Origin: Candidatus Omnitrophota bacterium
GTDB taxonomy: Bacteria > Omnitrophota > Gorgyraeia > Zapsychrales > Fredricksoniimonadaceae
Assembly (NCBI GenBank): GCA_903860135.1
Contig: CAIOPG010000008.1
Coordinates: forward strand, 64,127 to 128,126
DNA length: 64,000 nt
Direction of reading: 5' to 3'
The translations under genes and the position numbers were made by a program. Numbering within the stretch: the first letter of the stretch is position 1; the number at the start of each line of letters is the position of its first letter. Below, piece after piece: positions 6,239 to 63,964 of this stretch. The notes beneath the pieces are model-generated. The model had not been told where the DNA came from and did not search any database. It worked only from the letters and a program-made list of their open reading frames with translations.

Positions 6239-9200
6239 TTATGACGGCAACAGGCTCTTGACCGGGGTGATGTTAAGGATCACCGGCCGAAACCCGCTCA
6301 CGCCATCAGCCTTGATCCGCGCCAACTCCGCCGGATCCACCGTAACCTTCATCCCCGCGCCCGTGCGCTCGACCTTGAGGTTCAGCTGAGCCGGGTCGAA
6401 GTCGATACCACCGGTGGCGGAATTGTCACGAACCTCACGCATCAAACTTTGCCGTTCCGCAGTCATCTTAACATGATTCAATGTCCACTGAACATCTCGA
6501 CTATTCACACTTGTTTTTCCATCTTGTCCCAGGAAATTCTTCATTGTTATCGGCTCAACACCCGACTCTCTACTGGCGGGAATAATTAGCCTAGGATTCG
6601 TCACAGCCATTTCATCAAACCTCCCATGAATAATGTCGGCAAACGACGTTCCTTTATAATCCGCGATAAGAGATCTGTTAACAAACCTCGGCCCCCCTGT
6701 ATGCACTAATGAAATAATGATTTCATTTTCATACAACTCTAATTTGCTAACCTTTTCCCATCCATTTGAAGAAATATCCCAAACAGTCGGCTCTTCGTTA
6801 CCAACCACCACCCCCTGCAATGCAACATTAGCAATTCCAGGTGCAGCCGTTAAAGGCATATTAATATCACTCTCTTGAAGTATAAAATCCTTAAGATGTA
6901 GGTTATCTGGGACAATAAACTTACTATTTTGAAGATAAGAATTTCCATCCAAAATTAATTTAACACGCTTTGTGGGATCTGGATTTCTAATCGTCACATT
7001 TTCTAAGATCACATGCGCCCCGTCAGGAACAACAAGCTCTATGGTTTCATCAATTTGCACACGGCCTATCCTCGTTTCTTTACCGGGCATACTTTTTGCT
7101 TTATCATGAAAACCTCTAATATACCGATCAACATTCCCATCATCCTGAAATCCATTAACTTGACCAACAAGAATTTTATCTTCCTTCACAGAAACAGGCT
7201 TTGTCACAGCTGTATAAAATTTCTGTTCCTCCGCTGATAACGTTGCAAAGAAAGCAGGATTATACTGTTTCCCAACTGTTAAATCAAAATAACTTCCAGG
7301 GAATATACGTGCTGACTGTCCATTCATTACCCCTTCCTTATACGCAACCTGCTGCTGATCAAAAGCATCCCCAGTGTAAACAAGCAAAAACGCATTAGGA
7401 ATAATGCTGTTTGTATCAATCTTCTTTAACATAAAAAGCATTTGAACAGGCGTAGGTTTTTCCTGAAATAGTTTTTGCACTCCCGTATTTGAATCTGCAA
7501 AGTTTTCCCCCAAATCATGCCATTTATTCTTTTTAATACGTGCAATAGCAGCAGCCAAAGCAGGTGATTTCTTAATGACTGCGTTTTCCGTAATTCCGTC
7601 TTCTTTACCGTCATTGGCTTGAACCAACTCATCCAAAGCTTGAAAAACAGCTTGTTTATCTTGCGGCGCGAAAACCTGTCCAGGAACGCCAAGAATAGTT
7701 ACCCCGAAATTTCCATCATTCTTAAGTTCTGATATTTGCCGAGATCCAACCTTGATACCACCCACAAAATTATATGTTCCATCAGATGCCGCCCAAACCA
7801 GTCGACGCTGAGCACCTTCACCAAAATGAAGCATTTGTGAACGAACGGCCAGGATTGTTTTCATCACTTCCAAATAATATCTTGACCCATTAGCCGTTGG
7901 GAAATTACCGATATGCCCATTTTTTACTGTCGGCGGACCGCCACGATCTTTCGTGCCACCATCTGTAATAATATTGACATTAGCATTTTTAAAAAATTCA
8001 TATCCCATTGTATTCTGCACCGCCTGCACCGCAGATGTCATCCCGCATCCATCCCCCCTCAAAACCTTAACAGACTCTTCAACACTCAAAAATATCTGCA
8101 CATACCCATTGTATTGTTGAGATATTTGTTTCATAAACTCAAGGTACGCAATATGCGAATTCTCAGAAGCTCTTTTAATATTAGTTACAAAATACTGCAC
8201 GCCTAAAACACCACTCTTTAGTGCCGCCTGAAAAACCGCATCATTACGATCAGATTTTTCCTGAGTCTCAAAAGAAAACGGTTCTTTAACTTTTAATTTC
8301 CTAGCTTCTTCCTCTGTTATTCCATTTTCAATATATTGACCAACAACATCCTGAACATCACTCACGCTCATTGTTGTTAAATCAATAGGCTTGGGAGGAT
8401 TCTCCGTCTTTGCTAAAAAAAGCGCTGGCTTTGTCTCTTTGGGGCCATCAAGCTCATTAACACGGGCTTCTTCATAAATCCTATCAATTGCCGAAATATC
8501 ATGCCGCTCTGCCGCTTGTATAATTTGCTGAGAATGACGATTATTTTTTTCATAAAACATCTTTATCTTCTCGATCTTTACCAACTGCTCTTTTTGTCCC
8601 GCCACATCATTATCATCCCAGCGATCAATTAAATGCCCAAATCCATTTTCAGCTGCAAAAAATAATGTTGCTCTTTCCGGCGCATCCACCTGAGAACGCT
8701 CAAAATGAACTTTCGCTCTTTCTGGCAAATTAGAGCTTTTAACAAACTCAACCTGCTCTTGTGGCGTCGCAGCCCTGTCAAATGTCGTCTGCGGCCTCGC
8801 TTCAGGCTTCCCTGGCTTCTGCGTAATAGCAACCTTAACACTACTCAAATCATGACCCGCATCAGCCGCATCCCGAACCTGTACCGGCAATTTTTCAGCC
8901 CTGTCAACCTTTTGAGCATTCTCCCGAACCTTTGCCGCTAGTTCCGTACCCTGAAACCCCCCCGAAAAATACTTGCGCGGGAGGGTTTCCTGGGTGACGG
9001 GGTCTACGTCTTCTTTGATGTAATTGAACACGCCTTCTTTATAGGCGGCGATGTAGCGTTGGTAGATCTTTTCTTTGTCGGTCTTGTCGAGGATATCGAC
9101 GCCGTCGACTTTGTTCTTGTCGGCATAAACCTGGCCGAGGAGGCTGTCTTTAAGGTTGTTCTTGTACCACATGGCCAGCACCATCGCCTGGTAAACCTGG

Positions 9201-10021
9201 CGCAGGAGGGCGAAGTTTTTGCCGGTGTTGATCTCTTTCTCGATTTCGGGGATCACGACCTGGCGCATGACGTCGCTCGCTGATCGGGCGGCGTCGCGGA
9301 TGTCGGCATTGTTCATCTGGCCCATGCCGGCGGCCGGATCCTTCATGTTCTGCTTGAGCGCCAGGTAATCTTCTTCCATCATGACCTTCATGCGCGTCGC
9401 ACCGAGGATCGCGGTATCACCCACCTCATAAACCTTGGCCTGATCGGGCATGATCCAGACTTTATTGAAGGTATTGGTCGGCAGGTCAGCGGTACCGAGC
9501 ACCTGGGTAACCCTGGCGTACACGCGTGACCAGAATTCCTTGCCCAGGTCTTTTTCAGGATAAATGAGTGAAGCGGTCAGCTGTTTGAGCACATAGTCCT
9601 GCGCCAGAAGGTCGCGGCCCATTTCAGTCTGGCCAAAGGCTTCAGGCACAATGCGGTCGTGTTCGTAGGGCGACAGGTTGACCCATAGGTCTTTTTCAGG
9701 GATGGTGAGCGAGGCAAGGAAATATTTAACGAGTTTTTCGGTTTCGGTCTTGATGAGCGCCTGATTGGCATCTGTATCGCCGCTGTCGACGATAAAATCA
9801 AACACCAGGGGCTGGTCAGGGTACACCTTGACCGCGCGCAGAGACACCGGCATATACGCGGCGCTCGGCAGAACCATGGCACCGGGCCTGGGCAGGTCCA
9901 TCACGCCCTGGGCATAACCGGCCGGCAGAAGGCCTGTCAGCATAAAGCAAACCACGACCACTGCGGCTACCGTTTTTCTTAATCCCCGACCACAAGACGT
10001 TCTGTCAAAATGACCCAACAT
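6239..10021 (-). CDS. giant secreted protein (1260 aa): signal peptide, conserved N-terminal module, AT-rich variable core, conserved ~55 aa C-terminal domain
   Basis: Signal-peptide-like N-terminus AAVVVVCFMLTGLLPAGYAQG. The N-terminal ~230 aa are homologous to ORF 23135..23902, with about 85-90% nucleotide identity over a ~160 bp stretch (9550-9700 vs 23500-23660). The C-terminal GGIDFDPAQLNL...GFRPVILNITPVKSL is shared with ORFs 22730..23050 and 63125..63964. GC is ~42% across 6480-8750 versus ~60% in the flanks. Confidence 0.7.
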   Translation of the reverse strand: MLGHFDRTSCGRGLRKTVAAVVVVCFMLTGLLPAGYAQGVMDLPRPGAMVLPSAAYMPVSLRAVKVYPDQPLVFDFIVDSGDTDANQALIKTETEKLVKYFLASLTIPEKDLWVNLSPYEHDRIVPEAFGQTEMGRDLLAQDYVLKQLTASLIYPEKDLGKEFWSRVYARVTQVLGTADLPTNTFNKVWIMPDQAKVYEVGDTAILGATRMKVMMEEDYLALKQNMKDPAAGMGQMNNADIRDAARSASDVMRQVVIPEIEKEINTGKNFALLRQVYQAMVLAMWYKNNLKDSLLGQVYADKNKVDGVDILDKTDKEKIYQRYIAAYKEGVFNYIKEDVDPVTQETLPRKYFSGGFQGTELAAKVRENAQKVDRAEKLPVQVRDAADAGHDLSSVKVAITQKPGKPEARPQTTFDRAATPQEQVEFVKSSNLPERAKVHFERSQVDAPERATLFFAAENGFGHLIDRWDDNDVAGQKEQLVKIEKIKMFYEKNNRHSQQIIQAAERHDISAIDRIYEEARVNELDGPKETKPALFLAKTENPPKPIDLTTMSVSDVQDVVGQYIENGITEEEARKLKVKEPFSFETQEKSDRNDAVFQAALKSGVLGVQYFVTNIKRASENSHIAYLEFMKQISQQYNGYVQIFLSVEESVKVLRGDGCGMTSAVQAVQNTMGYEFFKNANVNIITDGGTKDRGGPPTVKNGHIGNFPTANGSRYYLEVMKTILAVRSQMLHFGEGAQRRLVWAASDGTYNFVGGIKVGSRQISELKNDGNFGVTILGVPGQVFAPQDKQAVFQALDELVQANDGKEDGITENAVIKKSPALAAAIARIKKNKWHDLGENFADSNTGVQKLFQEKPTPVQMLFMLKKIDTNSIIPNAFLLVYTGDAFDQQQVAYKEGVMNGQSARIFPGSYFDLTVGKQYNPAFFATLSAEEQKFYTAVTKPVSVKEDKILVGQVNGFQDDGNVDRYIRGFHDKAKSMPGKETRIGRVQIDETIELVVPDGAHVILENVTIRNPDPTKRVKLILDGNSYLQNSKFIVPDNLHLKDFILQESDINMPLTAAPGIANVALQGVVVGNEEPTVWDISSNGWEKVSKLELYENEIIISLVHTGGPRFVNRSLIADYKGTSFADIIHGRFDEMAVTNPRLIIPASRESGVEPITMKNFLGQDGKTSVNSRDVQWTLNHVKMTAERQSLMREVRDNSATGGIDFDPAQLNLKVERTGAGMKVTVDPAELARIKADGVSGFRPVILNITPVKSLLPS

Positions 10022-13467: not shown

Positions 13468-13539
13468 AACTACCTCCTGTTAATGACGGATCATCATCCG
13501 CCACATCATTCGGGCGGGTTTGAAACCCGCCCCTACATG

Positions 13540-21524: not shown

Positions 21525-22279
21525 GGATAAATACGCGTCGGGTAACCCAAACCGGAAAGTTTAGTCTCCAGGGCAAGGGCATCCTTCAAAGCCGTTGTCC
21601 GCCCCACACGCACACGATAAAAAAGCCGCCCGTCCGGGGCTGTCGTTGCGACGATGTAGGCATATTCCCCGCGGTCAAGGAGATCGCGCGTTAGCCGTTC
21701 CGCCAGCGCCTTGTCAAGAAAAGCACCCACCTGGACCGTGAAATACTGCTTCTCTTCGAGCAATTGCCGGGCCAGCCTGCCTTCGAAACTCTTAGGGTAA
21801 TCATGGACGATCTTTTGAAGGAAATCCTGCGCCTGGGCCCAATGAGCCAGCCTGAGACTGGCCCGCGCAGCCTTGAGATAGATCAATCCCAGCATCTCCG
21901 AACGGGGACGCCTGCCCATGAGCGACAACGCCTCCTGGAGCGCCTGCTCATAACGGCCCTGCATATAAAGCGCGTCGATCACGCCGATGTATGCCTTTTC
22001 ATATATTTGATCGGAGGGGCGCTCATTGACCACCTGTTTAAACGCGTCATACGCCTGCGGGTAATCGCCCAACCGCAAACGGCTCAACCCCAAATAATAC
22101 CCTGCGTACGCGGCATCATGGCGCGACAAATACCCCTTACGCGCCCCCTTGGCCAATGCCCCGGCTTTCTTGTAATCTTCCTGGATAATGGCCGCCTCAA
22201 TATCGGCCAAAGGGCTGGTGCGGGCCAACGCCGTCAACGGCACAGCCACCATGATCAGGCAAAACAGCATGCGTTTCAT
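21521..22279 (-). CDS. TPR-repeat protein with C-terminal SPOR domain
   Basis: Signal peptide, TPR-like helices, and a C-terminal YFTVQVGAF...YRVRVG SPOR motif. Confidence 0.6.
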   Translation of the reverse strand: MKRMLFCLIMVAVPLTALARTSPLADIEAAIIQEDYKKAGALAKGARKGYLSRHDAAYAGYYLGLSRLRLGDYPQAYDAFKQVVNERPSDQIYEKAYIGVIDALYMQGRYEQALQEALSLMGRRPRSEMLGLIYLKAARASLRLAHWAQAQDFLQKIVHDYPKSFEGRLARQLLEEKQYFTVQVGAFLDKALAERLTRDLLDRGEYAYIVATTAPDGRLFYRVRVGRTTALKDALALETKLSGLGYPTRIYP

Positions 22280-22729
22280 GAGTTTCCCTCGTTAAACGAA
22301 TACATAAGATATTATTAACTATACGCACACAAGGGAGTCTGTCAACGAAAGTTTAACCCGCACTTTTCAATAAACAGAGGTAATGCGGGCTGAATCCGGG
22401 GTTAGAAGGAAGAAACAGGGGCGACAGAGATTCGGAGGGAACTACAGTTTGGTGGATTCGTCATTACGGGAGGGCCCTGATCACCCCTGAATTCAATTGG
22501 GAAATTTGGTTTGAAACGATCCCTCACTCCCCTCCCACAACCAACCTAATAGGCTGACCACCTGCTAAAGTATGCACTAAAACCATAAGAAAATCAATGG
22601 TTAGAAACAAAAATTATCGAGGAATAAGGAAAAGTTCCTGTTATCGACGGATCGATGTGATTGATATTCAGCGTTTTATGAATCATGTTGAAAACTTTCG
22701 GTTGAAAGACACTCCAAAGCCAGCCAAGA

Positions 22730-23050
22730 TCACTTCCCCAATATCACCGAAAGACCTAGGAATTCCGAAAGACTTGCCAGCGGCTTAACGCCCATGATCA
22801 CCGGTGACACGCCGGAGGCGTTCTGCAGACGGGCAAGCATGGCAGGGTCGAGGTTGAATTCAATCGCCGGGCCATGGCTGTTGGTGGTCATGTTGATTTG
22901 GGAGGGATTGAGGTCGATACCGCCGGAGTGATTTACATTCATACTATTAGGAACATTTTTCGATGGTAATGCTTCAGGCATATTAATAACTTGCGTATAC
23001 AAATTAATTATATTGGGAAGTGATAAATCTCCTTTAAACTCAACATCCAC
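22730..23050 (-). pseudogene. remnant encoding only the conserved C-terminal module of the giant-protein family
   Basis: SGGIDLNPSQINM...NLDPAMLARLQNASGVSPVIMGVKPLASL aligns with the last ~55 aa of ORF 6239..10021. Upstream lies only ~85 bp of AT-rich filler before the N-module ORF. Confidence 0.4.
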
Positions 23051-23134
23051 ATACTTTGATCGTTTCTTATAAATCGAAGGATAATAAAAACGAATTTTTT
23101 TCCATCATCAGAAACAAACTCTTTGGCAACCGTT

Positions 23135-23902
23135 TCAATAAATAATCGTAACGCAGGACTGCCCTCCCCACGCTAGCGCGGGGGCGGGTGATAATTGGTT
23201 GATGCCCTGGGTCGCTTGCGTATCCGATAAAAAAGGGCGGGTCATGGCCCCGCCCCTACGTGAGAATTCATCATTTTCTGCGGTGGCCTTATAATCGGAC
23301 TCCAACATTACCTTTAACCTGGATTCAACGACGTAGGCGGCGTCTTGGTGTTCGTAGACGGTGGCTTTCTCGGGGGTGATCCAGACTTTGTTGAAGGTGG
23401 CGACGGGGATATCCGTGGTGCCGTAGCGTTTTAAGGCTTCGGCGTAGACTTTAGCCCAGAATTCCTTGCCGACTTTATCGTCGGGATAAATGACGGATGC
23501 GGTAATTTGTTTAAGAATATAATCCTGCGCCAAAAGGTCGCGGCCCATTTCGGTCTGGCCAAAGGCTTCGGGCACAATGCGGTCTTTTTCATACGGACTT
23601 AAATTCACCCACAGGTCTTTCTCGGGAACCGTGAGCGAGGCGAGAAAATATTTGATCAGGCGCAGGGAATCCCCTTCAGCCTTCGCATCCCCTTTATCCA
23701 AGATAAAATCAAAGCGGAAAGGGTCGTTCCGATACACCTTGATGCCCTTTAAAAGCGGCGGGGCAAAGACCGGGCTCAAAGCCAGGCGCGTACCCGGCGC
23801 GGGCAATGTCACCTGCGCATAAAGCCGTGCATCCGGCATGATCAATGCCGTGATCAGGATGCTGGCGATAAACTTATATAGTTTTACCCTGAAATTATAC
23901 AA
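23135..23902 (-). CDS. truncated paralog of the giant protein (signal peptide + conserved N-terminal module only)
   Basis: A TTG start at 23902 with a GAGGG SD gives a signal peptide KLYKFIASILITALIM. There is about 70% aa identity to residues ~60-280 of the giant protein, after which it diverges and stops. Confidence 0.5.
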   Translation of the reverse strand: MYNFRVKLYKFIASILITALIMPDARLYAQVTLPAPGTRLALSPVFAPPLLKGIKVYRNDPFRFDFILDKGDAKAEGDSLRLIKYFLASLTVPEKDLWVNLSPYEKDRIVPEAFGQTEMGRDLLAQDYILKQITASVIYPDDKVGKEFWAKVYAEALKRYGTTDIPVATFNKVWITPEKATVYEHQDAAYVVESRLKVMLESDYKATAENDEFSRRGGAMTRPFLSDTQATQGINQLSPAPALAWGGQSCVTIIY

Positions 23903-24063
23903 AATTATCCCTCTATTGATATAAATGAACCCAACCTTAATGATAAAGATAACATATATAAGCGAATGCAATATGTTGGACAAATTGGCAATTGAATTGA
24001 CAATTTGTCCAGTGCAGGAAATCTTGGGGAATGCTTTATGATTAAATCAGGGGAAATAAATCT

Positions 24064-24489
24064 TCAATCACGCCCTGCATCAAACGGGTTAACAATCTTG
24101 ATACCTTCATACAGGCACCCGACACTAAAATCTTCGCTCAGGATCTCGTCGGCCTTGGCTGACCTAGCTGCCGCGATGATCAATGAATCCCAAAAAGACA
24201 GCTTCAACCGCGACTTCAATCGCATCCCTTCGGTCAACAGCGCCGCATCATTAACAACAACATTCCATTGAAGCAAGTCTTCAATAATTTCTGCTGCCAG
24301 GTTTTCCGAGACACCCTTCCTGACAAAATTAACATAACACTCCTGCAAAACCTGAATACTGATGCTCGGCGGAATCGCTTGTCCCCATAATGATTTAAGG
24401 ATGCGCACCGCCATCGTGTGCCGCGCCCCCGCATCAAGGTCATAGGCATAAATGATTATATTGGAATCAACGAACACCTTTTTACTCAT
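24064..24489 (-). CDS. PIN domain toxin (VapC-like)
   Basis: MSKKVFVDSNIIIYAYD... PIN fold. Confidence 0.75.
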   Translation of the reverse strand: MSKKVFVDSNIIIYAYDLDAGARHTMAVRILKSLWGQAIPPSISIQVLQECYVNFVRKGVSENLAAEIIEDLLQWNVVVNDAALLTEGMRLKSRLKLSFWDSLIIAAARSAKADEILSEDFSVGCLYEGIKIVNPFDAGRD

Positions 24490-24709
24490 AAATATCAGCC
24501 CGGCTTAACGGCTTGCCGCCCAGATGAAACCCTTGCTTCAGGCTTGCCAATGCCCGTGCCCTTGCGCGCTGGTGATCATCTGACGCTGATACCTCAGAAG
24601 CAATAAGGTCACTGACCCATTGGGAAAGCGATTTATTATAAGCAACAGCCTTGTATCGCGCCTTATGCAAAAGCTGTGCATCCAGTCTCAATGTGATATT
24701 CTTTGTCAT
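24482..24709 (-). CDS. antitoxin partner of PIN toxin (RHH-like)
   Basis: 75 aa ORF that overlaps the PIN gene by 8 nt. Confidence 0.55.
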   Translation of the reverse strand: MTKNITLRLDAQLLHKARYKAVAYNKSLSQWVSDLIASEVSASDDHQRARARALASLKQGFHLGGKPLSRADIYE

Positions 24710-24789
24710 GAATTCATCCTCCTCAGACCAATATTAGCACATTTTGTGTGCAGAATAAAGGCGGATAGGGATCAATGCTGCTTTGTTCT

Positions 24790-25041
24790 TTACATAACAG
24801 CATGAAAATGTTGCGCCACCAAAACCTTGACAACCGCCTGACGCGTAATGCCAAGACGCCCGGCCTCTTTATCCAGTGAATTCAACATCCACACAGGAAA
24901 ATCAACATTAACCCGCTTGATCTCCTGCCCACCACGTCTTGTTTTAGCAAGATCCAAATGTGTTGTCACATTTTTACCTGCATCAAAAATAGCATCAAAT
25001 TCTTTAGCTTTCATAAATAGCCCTCTCTTCTGGCCTTGCAC
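24790..25041 (-). CDS. BrnA-like (CopG family) antitoxin, orphan
   Basis: KAKEFDAIFDAGKNVTTHLDLAKTRR resembles BrnA. No BrnT-like ORF is adjacent. Confidence 0.45.
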   Translation of the reverse strand: MQGQKRGLFMKAKEFDAIFDAGKNVTTHLDLAKTRRGGQEIKRVNVDFPVWMLNSLDKEAGRLGITRQAVVKVLVAQHFHAVM

Positions 25042-63124: not shown

Positions 63125-63964
63125 TTACGGCGTTATCAGGCCCTGCAACAGGCTGGCGCCGACAGGCTGTATGCTCAGGATCTCGGGCACAAGGCCGTCG
63201 ATCCGTATATTCTCCAGATTCTGCTGGCTCACCGGCAAAACCACCCCGGCCCCATCACGCTTGATCTGCATGTCAAGGTTCGACTGCGCAAAGTCGATAC
63301 CACCTTTTAAATCTTGACTATTATCATGGTTAGTCGTGAATTTGTTATGTTTATCCTGCTCAATAAGTTGTTTCGCTGTGTTACCTTTCAACATTCCCTC
63401 AATATAGGGCCTGACACGAAAATATTCATTCGAGTCTTTTTCAAAAATGGCCTTAAGTGCCACACCCACACGATAATTCAGACTATCTATCTGAACTGTT
63501 GGAAAATGATCCAAGAATGGCGTCATGCTGATAACATGCAACGCCATGGCGCGTCCATTCCCACGCTTAAAATCCTCTTCCATTGCTGTATTAAAACGAG
63601 CAAATATCCCATTTAAATAATTTTCAGTTATCGCGCTCGCCTGATCGACCTTAAAAGAAATAACAACAGGATTCATTTGAAAGTCTGGATTGCCTATAAC
63701 TTCTAAACTCTTAACATCCCAATTCATGGCATCAGCAAATATTTTCGTATAGTTTCTTACGTCGCCATTATCGACAAATGGCATCGATACCGTAATAACC
63801 TGTCGATCATTTGATGTTATTTTTATCCTTTTATAGATCGTTGCATTGATATTGTTAATATTCCTTTCATTTTCTAAGCTATGCTTTAGAATATAGATCG
63901 TTGCATTGATATTGTTAATATTCCTTTCATTTTCTAAGCTATGCTTTAGAATAAAAGCATGCAA
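63125..63964 (-). CDS. protein with AT-rich N-terminal region and conserved GC-rich C-terminal domain shared with the giant protein; possibly 5'-incomplete at window edge
   Basis: The C-terminus GGIDFAQSNLDMQIKRDGAGVV...GLVPEILSIQPVGASL aligns with the C-terminus of ORF 6239..10021. GC drops sharply at ~63310. It contains an in-frame 60-bp tandem duplication. Confidence 0.5.
   Translation of the reverse strand: MHAFILKHSLENERNINNINATIYILKHSLENERNINNINATIYKRIKITSNDRQVITVSMPFVDNGDVRNYTKIFADAMNWDVKSLEVIGNPDFQMNPVVISFKVDQASAITENYLNGIFARFNTAMEEDFKRGNGRAMALHVISMTPFLDHFPTVQIDSLNYRVGVALKAIFEKDSNEYFRVRPYIEGMLKGNTAKQLIEQDKHNKFTTNHDNSQDLKGGIDFAQSNLDMQIKRDGAGVVLPVSQQNLENIRIDGLVPEILSIQPVGASLLQGLITP
63834..63953. 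repeat. perfect 60-bp tandem duplication (2 copies) inside a CDS
   Basis: TAGATCGTTGCATTGATATTGTTAATATTCCTTTCATTTTCTAAGCTATGCTTTAGAATA x2, in-frame, which duplicates the peptide ILKHSLENERNINNINATIY. Confidence 0.9.

Follow-up and report, generated by a model that had tools for sequence, protein, structure and literature searches.

A probable pseudogene remnant with an internal deletion in a multicopy family of predicted exported Omnitrophota proteins

We analysed a 64,000-nucleotide (nt) stretch of DNA from a Candidatus Omnitrophota bacterium (contig CAIOPG010000008.1, positions 64,127 to 128,126 of the forward strand), hereafter the window, and followed up one locus in it, 22730-24063 on the minus strand. 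All positions are those of the window unless another locus is named. The locus holds two neighbouring open reading frames (ORFs) that resemble the two ends of a much longer gene, 6239-10021(-), which encodes an intact protein of 1260 amino acids (aa) and served as the comparison gene. For the upstream ORF, 23135-23983(-), the probable start is a TTG at 23902, which gives a product of 255 aa (N-fragment). Its residues 35-237 align with residues 14-225 of the 1260-aa protein (52% identity, E 5e-72). Residues 42-94 of the downstream ORF, 22730-23050(-) (C-fragment), align with residues 1203-1257, the last 55 of the same protein (40%, E 5e-12). Both similarities are far above chance level. A previous sequence-only reading of this DNA had taken the two ORFs for the conserved ends of the giant protein, brought to within about 85 bp of each other. 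This was borne out: the ORFs are collinear with the family architecture, everything between is missing, and the separation is 84 nt (23051-23134). The two ORFs are in one frame, with three in-frame TGA codons between them (23137-23135, 23110-23108 and 23107-23105).

For the family to which both proteins belong, we built profiles of the N- and C-terminal modules (N-module and C-module) and scanned the six-frame ORFs of 79 loci. Its members are built from a Sec signal peptide, an N-module composed of a first domain (dom1), a variable linker and a helical second domain (dom2), a diverse cargo, and a C-module of about 70 aa at the extreme C-terminus. About 100 ORFs contained the N-module, and 70 of them were single ORFs of 784-3212 aa (counted from stop to stop, which includes a few codons before the true start) with the N-module first and the C-module in the last ~70 residues. 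All 70 intact genes examined follow this plan, and dom2 is present in every one. The N-module, about 330 aa long, consists of a very conserved dom1 (profile positions 1-220), a hypervariable linker and dom2, which ends in PRKYFSGG. The cargo of the 70 intact genes measures 379-2846 aa (median 833). Pfam matches to it included HATPase_c, methyltransferases, GDSL lipase, HAD, PP2C, histidine phosphatase, uridine kinase-like, TPR and HEAT domains, and the majority of cargo had no match. The consensus of the C-module is GGIDLtP...FhLDPAmLaQLQNApGFvPVIinIqP...FLG, and its AlphaFold model is mostly coil (pLDDT 65) and not a beta-sandwich. It was found in 4885 representative protein clusters, always at the C-terminus, and at least 10 long proteins carry it without an N-module. 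Many C-module proteins in the database are short and Met-started and lack the N-module. In most members (loci L005-L083; proteins P0149-P0295), a D-x-A-M motif is located 3-25 residues ahead of the GGIDL start and could be a processing site.

The bacteria of the phylum Omnitrophota are ultra-small and probably depend on hosts. More than 1000 relatives of the N-fragment are in the database; the named ones are proteins of Omnitrophota metagenome-assembled genomes (MAGs), and none has a Pfam domain. Species-representative genomes yielded at least 586 confirmed matches to the N-module, mostly in Omnitrophota MAGs; several in one genome, and tandem arrangements, are frequent. The family appears to be confined mostly to Omnitrophota. 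Pfam and NCBIfam scans of the three family proteins in the window returned nothing except a weak, sub-threshold and unrelated match on the ORF at 63125. No description of the family was found in the Omnitrophota literature searched. The family is undescribed, multicopy and very large. Its proteins are probably Sec-exported, and diverse enzyme cargo would lie between a conserved head and a short tail tag that is intrinsically unstructured.

Compared with this plan, the locus lacks the whole middle of the gene. The N-fragment matched the N-module profile (294 positions) over positions 3-224, that is, signal peptide, dom1 and linker only. The helical dom2 (profile 226-294) is missing from the locus, and the ORF departs from the family alignment after AWGGQ. 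The sequence-only reading, which had assigned a signal peptide and the conserved N-module to 23135-23902, was therefore correct for the signal peptide, dom1 and linker and incorrect for dom2. In the numbering of the intact paralogue, dom2 and cargo correspond to residues 226-1202. The distance from linker to C-module is only 73 codons, the minimum cargo being 379 aa in the 70 intact genes and ~275 aa in one further protein (P0201). The C-fragment matched positions 4-70 of the C-module profile and has kept every family motif. Whereas a member of the family is one uninterrupted ORF, the locus is broken by the three in-frame TGA codons. Neither a dedicated profile search for dom1 plus C-module nor the 147 C-module representatives yielded an intact cargo-less member; the shortest proteins with both modules among these representatives have 629-686 aa.

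Along the minus strand, the locus starts with an AT-rich region (23903-24063; 31.7% GC) that contains a palindrome and a Shine-Dalgarno-like motif and, from these features, may act as a promoter or operator. The near-perfect palindrome (23977-24011) has 17-nt arms and a 1-nt gap (TGGACAAATTGGCAATT / AATTGACAATTTGTCCA) and lies between a PIN toxin gene and the start of the N-fragment. It was not found upstream of the intact paralogue (6239-10021). The Shine-Dalgarno-like motif, GAGGG (23913-23909), is located 6 nt ahead of the TTG start. The start codon and the predicted signal peptide MYNFRVKLYKFIASILITALIMPDARLYAQ occupy 23813-23902; the peptide was assigned by reading the sequence and by alignment with family members, and it shows a charged n-region, a hydrophobic core and the YAQ end typical of the family. 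Dom1 (aa 31-204; 23291-23812) is complete and undecayed according to both the profile match and the conserved columns. The variable linker (aa 205-248; 23159-23290; KATAEN...AWGGQ) is homologous to the linkers of P0003 and P0004. Within its coding sequence we found a terminator-like, GC-rich hairpin (23233-23257) of nine pairs, seven of them G-C, followed by TTTTTTA. The hairpin is conserved in the homologue L001, indicating a terminator-like element inside the coding sequence of a sub-branch of the family. A hairpin of the form GGGCGGG...CCCGCCC with a T-run occurs twice in the window, at 23233-23257 and 13512-13532, where none would be expected by chance. The copy in the linker is translated as RRGGAMTRPF.

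The junction segment (23105-23158) comprises seven codons (SCVTIIY), a TGA, eight codons and then TGA TGA, with no homology in any frame. It is followed, in the frame of the C-module, by an AT-rich open stretch without homologue (22958-23104), probably a remnant of the cargo tail, and by the complete C-module (NVPNSMNVNHSGGIDLNPSQ...FLGLSVILGK; 22733-22957) with its stop codon at 22730-22732. A search with all three frames of the filler between the modules retrieved no homologue. The linker ends 2-5 codons short of the expected start of dom2, and the alignment places the 5' breakpoint of the presumed deletion at about 23159. On the other side, the sequence 23104-22941 (~31% GC) is open over 54 codons, as is the case in only ~1% of shuffled sequences (P about 0.01). 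Because it is open beyond chance, we read it as a coding remnant rather than a spacer, and because its low GC content resembles that of the cargo of the intact paralogue (42%, compared with 55% for the genome), as the tail of the lost cargo. In the paralogue, the cargo (6416-9000) has a GC content of ~42%, the N-module side (9001-10021) and the surrounding genome 55%, and the C-module 62%. The difference between cargo and modules is small in 70 genes of other genomes (43% vs 46-47%). What the sequence-only reading had called a short AT-rich lead-in to the conserved C-module thus looks like a piece of coding sequence, and the C-module itself is complete. The reading had offered two options for the cargo core, deleted or not yet inserted. 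The first is supported, with the addition that dom2, which had been overlooked, was removed as well; the second is not supported, as the 54 open codons look like a cargo tail that survived a deletion.

As judged by inspection, none of the candidate starts of the C-fragment has a convincing ribosome-binding site ahead of it. Short direct repeats at the junction, which the sequence-only reading had suggested looking for, amounted to short two-copy flanking matches of chance quality, and no recombinase genes were seen there. Rfam gave no match at the gathering threshold in the whole window and none at a permissive threshold in 22200-24100; no tRNA genes were found.

The same arrangement was present in other assemblies. 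An identical N-fragment was found on five contigs, each with the same arrangement. On a 7040-nt contig from another sample, an N-fragment differing by one residue has the same neighbours, a gap of 85 nt and a C-fragment of 106 aa. A 1792-nt contig from a third sample carries an N-fragment that is 90% identical (P0002), with the same junk tail, the same gap and a downstream ORF of 106 aa. P0002 and the N-fragment of the window differ chiefly in the signal peptide and in one loop, and the upstream neighbour is another one. Since the arrangement is present in assemblies of three different samples, it is very unlikely to be an assembly artefact.

Genes of the family are frequently damaged elsewhere. 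Single in-frame stops interrupt otherwise full-length genes as TAG in L001 (~920), L013 (~18743), L022 (~12309) and L086 (~4813) / L087 (~948), and as TAA in L028 (~2906) and L059 (~2478). The TAG replaces a conserved Gln codon in L001 and a conserved Tyr codon in L022. These stops could be nonsense mutations or sites of read-through; the excess of TAG is marginal, and with four TAG against two TAA a recoding of TAG in the interrupted relatives was unconvincing. L056 is frameshifted, L091 is a truncated dom1, and L004 is an orphan C-module. In P0171 (495 aa), a signal peptide and ~45 profile positions of dom1 are followed by dom2, cargo and C-module, most of dom1 being missing; it is the converse deletion to that in the window. 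A second, independent collapsed locus (L084/L085) consists of dom1 (profile 1-220) followed directly by a degenerate C-module (L084; E 3.6e-4) in another frame, and its dom1-only ORF, P0011, is identical on 13 contigs. Decay is thus common in this family. We also considered whether the 'dom1-only' proteins of the database form a real short class and rejected this, as their ends cluster shortly after the conserved region, where contig breaks would place them. Of three cases checked, one was a frameshift, one came from an error-rich long-read contig, and one was a truncated remnant.

These observations, that is, the homology to both ends of the family, the missing parts, the stop codons and the same state in three assemblies, lead us to interpret the locus as the internally deleted pseudogene remnant of one family copy, with a probability of about 0.68. 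The disabling lesions are the internal deletion of dom2 and cargo and the three stops. A deletion that began where the dom1-dom2 linker ends (~23159) and reached into the last ~55 codons of the cargo would have taken out dom2 and nearly all of the cargo, and the stop codons at the junction would have arisen after it or with it. A single protein from both halves is impossible because three TGA codons lie within the 18 junction codons. The upstream half, having kept its Shine-Dalgarno-like motif, TTG start and signal peptide, may at most be expressed as a truncated exported dom1 protein, from a transcript that probably ends at the terminator-like hairpin 23257-23233, and the C-fragment is presumably silent. 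Among the options raised by the sequence-only reading, the decaying pseudogene is the best one: besides the three stops and the loss of dom2, the C-fragment lacks a convincing start or ribosome-binding site, and an intact cargo-less member was not found.

To place the locus relative to other genomes, its neighbours were compared. In L088, the downstream SPOR-domain gene has an orthologue of 73% identity, which follows a conserved non-coding block and a gene for an AAA_14 ATPase instead of a family gene. L004 (MAG ELA167) carries an orphan C-module with 90% DNA identity to that of the window, followed by an AAA_14 gene whose protein is 92% identical to the AAA_14 protein of L088. Because this AAA_14 gene matches the one before the SPOR orthologue in L088, the C-modules of the window and L004 are at orthologous positions. 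Their similarity begins exactly at GGIDL and stops at FLG, and the sole ATG of the L004 orphan lies inside the module. An intact syntenic orthologue was not found: relatives that bear the SPOR gene have an AAA_14 ATPase or a response regulator upstream of it and no full-length family gene. The closest N-module (L005; 86% DNA identity) is accompanied by another C-module and other neighbours.

Several results of these comparisons weigh against a pseudogene. The C-module is fully intact, and both halves still share a reading frame. Between the C-modules of the window and L004, the Nei-Gojobori method gave 12 synonymous and 6 nonsynonymous differences, a ratio of nonsynonymous to synonymous substitution rates (dN/dS) of 0.14 and a dS of 0.35; raw inspection of the same 57 codons gave 5 amino-acid changes. 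For comparison, dS was 1.03 for the SPOR gene (window vs L088) and 0.45 for AAA_14 (L004 vs L088). Dom1 of the N-fragment has a dN/dS of 0.08-0.10 against its nearest homologues, like pairs of intact genes, and it differs at 2 of the 86 columns that are at least 90% conserved (84/86 kept; mean of intact genes, 2.5 mismatches). Relaxed selection, with a dN/dS moving toward 1 and a loss of conserved residues, was therefore not observed. This leaves two possibilities: a recent loss of the rest of the gene, separately in each lineage, or continued selection on the fragments. The second collapsed locus adds to these points: its frame change lies in a run of eight G (G8; L084 5675-5690) that encodes the GG of GGVDFN, and with seven G the locus would encode an intact dom1-C-module protein of ~280 aa. 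The G8 tract is a possible slipped-strand switch. The dN/dS values reject neutral evolution over most of the divergence, but most of that span precedes the deletion, so that a recent pseudogene is compatible with them.

The undecayed dom1 could alternatively mean that the upstream ORF encodes a functional, truncated and exported dom1-only protein under selection, e.g., a cargo-less competitor or adaptor for any binding partner of dom1, and that only the C-fragment is dead. Its Shine-Dalgarno-like motif, TTG start and signal peptide are intact, its conserved residues and low dN/dS would be explained, and in the AlphaFold model the truncation falls at a predicted domain boundary, after the second beta-hairpin and a short helix and before the helical dom2. 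The ORF is also identical or nearly so in three samples, and the dom1-only ORF P0011 is identical on 13 contigs. However, the low dN/dS comes from homologues in other species with a dS of at least 0.76 and thus mostly covers the time before the deletion, the ORF continues into seven junk codons and contains the terminator-like hairpin, and database 'dom1-only' proteins are mostly contig-end or frameshift artefacts. We consider such a protein rather doubtful. A different way of accounting for the conserved ends would be a maintained 'empty' state, in which the locus is a docking or acceptor site or a switchable mini-gene with head and tail as homology arms, or in which the C-module functions alone. 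The same topology, dom1 and then C-module, is found in two independent collapsed loci (window and L084), the latter separated by one G of its G8 tract from an in-frame fusion; the C-module is under purifying selection relative to the orthologous L004 orphan; and the differences of P0002 in signal peptide, loop and upstream neighbour would fit a replacement of the 5' part by recombination. Yet an acceptor would lack dom2, which every intact gene has, the C-module of L084 is degenerate, all three assemblies are in the same empty state, and the C-fragment has no usable start, just as the only ATG of L004 is within the module. In addition, neither repeats nor recombinase genes were noted at the junction, and the paralogues in the window are too diverged for homologous exchange (maximum identity 18 nt; none in the C-module). 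For this locus, we therefore regard a maintained empty state as very unlikely. The more general idea that cargo-less loci with dom1 and C-module are not debris but a recurrent, selectively kept empty or switchable mini-gene or docking site able to regain cargo is hinted at by the purifying selection on the L004 orphan, the undecayed dom1 and the single G that separates L084 from an intact fusion; we judge it slightly less improbable, though still unlikely.

The shared frame, together with the fact that all three intervening stops are TGA, would also allow the ORFs to be joined into a small dom1-C-module protein by recoding, either by TGA read-through or by an alternative genetic code. This is hardly credible: three read-through events within 11 codons would be required, and TGA is the commonest ordinary stop in the window: of the 44 ORFs on the gene-rich strand that have at least 200 codons, 28 end in it. 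Moreover, the Rfam scan revealed no recoding element or RNA family here, and the 18 junction codons are without homology. Nearly as remote is an assembly error in which short reads of a full-length paralogue were collapsed. As a high-copy repeat, the family causes assemblies to break up, many database members end at contig ends, and this contig has only 246 nt left upstream of another family fragment. Nevertheless, the sequence of junction and filler is unique and offers an assembler no shared k-mers for a jump, and gene order and ORF lengths are the same in assemblies of three different samples.

The sequence-only reading had further proposed that the locus is a recombination template or acceptor for cargo exchange with 6239-10021. 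At the DNA level, similarity to the intact paralogue is restricted to 23653-23362 vs 9727-9436, within dom1 (74.6% over 295 nt). No identical run exceeds 18 nt, and the two C-modules have no detectable similarity in DNA. The long, near-identical DNA of a silent cassette or acceptor was not found within the 128-kb contig, nor were repeats or recombinase sites at the junction. A diversity-generating retroelement would show a template and a variable repeat of ~100 nt, near-identical save for adenines; here, the C-terminal regions of the paralogues are dissimilar in DNA. Slipped-strand contingency does not apply to the window locus either, as its halves are in frame and are split by stops, not by a frameshift. 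Recombination between the locus and 6239-10021 is thus not supported by the sequence, and the pseudogene remnant is probably no exchange partner of the intact gene.

A third C-module in the window was detected by tblastn at 63149-63328; the same search with the three family proteins found no other N-module in the window. This C-module belongs to a 219-aa ORF, 63125-63784(-), with a cargo-like N-terminal part and without N-module or signal peptide, 246 nt from the end of the contig (128,154 nt). The ORF is preceded by an exact 60-nt tandem duplication (repeats 63830-63949), followed by a good terminator, and adjoins conjugation / type IV secretion genes (TrbC, TraL, TraE, TrbI and TraC).

Directly upstream of the remnant, 24064-25041 encodes a PIN toxin with a DUF6364-type antitoxin and a BrnA-like ORF; the orphan C-module of L004 likewise follows a BrnT/BrnA pair. 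On the other side, the range 22280-23130, which had been described as non-coding, holds the C-fragment, a conserved block at 22410-22600 and a promoter-like site at 22345-22318. This block precedes the SPOR gene and shares ~92% identity with its counterpart at the orthologous position in L088, compared with only ~76% in DNA for the SPOR gene. It has no Rfam match and folds no better than shuffled sequences on either strand. A short plus-strand frame in it (…EGTTVWWIRHY…NWEIWFET…) is conserved in L088, and its start codon is missing in the window. The site at 22345-22318(-), just upstream of the SPOR-miaA genes, is a near-consensus sigma-70-like promoter (TTGACA, 16 nt, TATAGT; 11/12 matches). 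Ahead of it is a hairpin, CCCGCA...TGCGGG, and a 49-nt piece of this hairpin region also matches L004 2355-2403 at 88%. The stretch upstream of the SPOR gene varies between relatives.

Remnants of multigene families with fast turnover are known from bacteria, and the locus resembles them in its homology to intact paralogues, the loss of an essential domain, premature stops and sister copies with nonsense or frameshift mutations. It differs in that its modules are undecayed, the C-module is under purifying selection relative to an orthologous orphan, and the parent family is undescribed. Orphans of polymorphic toxins (cdiA-CT/cdiI, Rhs C-terminal tips) keep the variable payload and an immunity gene and share a stretch of homology with the main gene. 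Conserved trafficking parts with a highly variable payload, tandem arrays and partial copies lacking the 5' part near intact genes (L004; 63125-63784) are shared with such loci. In contrast to toxin orphans, our locus has lost the payload and kept the conserved ends, and no immunity-like partner or DNA homology arm was found. Silent cassettes for antigenic variation (Neisseria pilS, Borrelia vls) contain the variable segment, lack the 5' end and have flanks near-identical to the expression site. Like them, the locus is a partial copy of the gene for a surface or exported protein located elsewhere in the same genome; unlike them, it has the 5' end and both conserved ends, no variable segment, and only 75% identity. 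Cargo of Type IX secretion carries a conserved C-terminal sorting domain. The family is similar in having an N-terminal Sec signal and a conserved 70-aa C-terminal module on unrelated cargo, also without the N-module, and dissimilar in its additional 330-aa N-module, in a module that is not a beta-sandwich, and in the lack of a match to the Pfam/NCBIfam Type IX C-terminal domains. Functionally, the family would resemble polymorphic effector families as well as C-terminal sorting tags, and it seems to belong to no described one. A recent preprint deals with Omnitrophota proteins of at least 10,000 aa (Nielsen & Lui 2026, doi 10.64898/2026.06.07.730766). Those proteins come from the same phylum, are exported or membrane proteins and have enzyme-like domains (methyltransferases, phosphatases, kinases). 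The members reported here are shorter (0.7-3.2 kaa), and the passages of the preprint that were searched describe neither the family with N-module and C-module nor its remnants.

Taken alone, a deleted gene copy such as this is nothing unusual, and the value of the locus lies in the natural dissection of an undescribed family. The remnant marks the split of the head into two domains. It also shows that the head and tail modules can be separated from each other and that the family gains and loses copies quickly. If cargo-less loci were kept as an empty state after all, such remnants could reveal a mechanism of cargo exchange or an on/off switch. Should the family bring enzyme cargo to hosts or to the surface of the cell, they would help to date the turnover of its genes.

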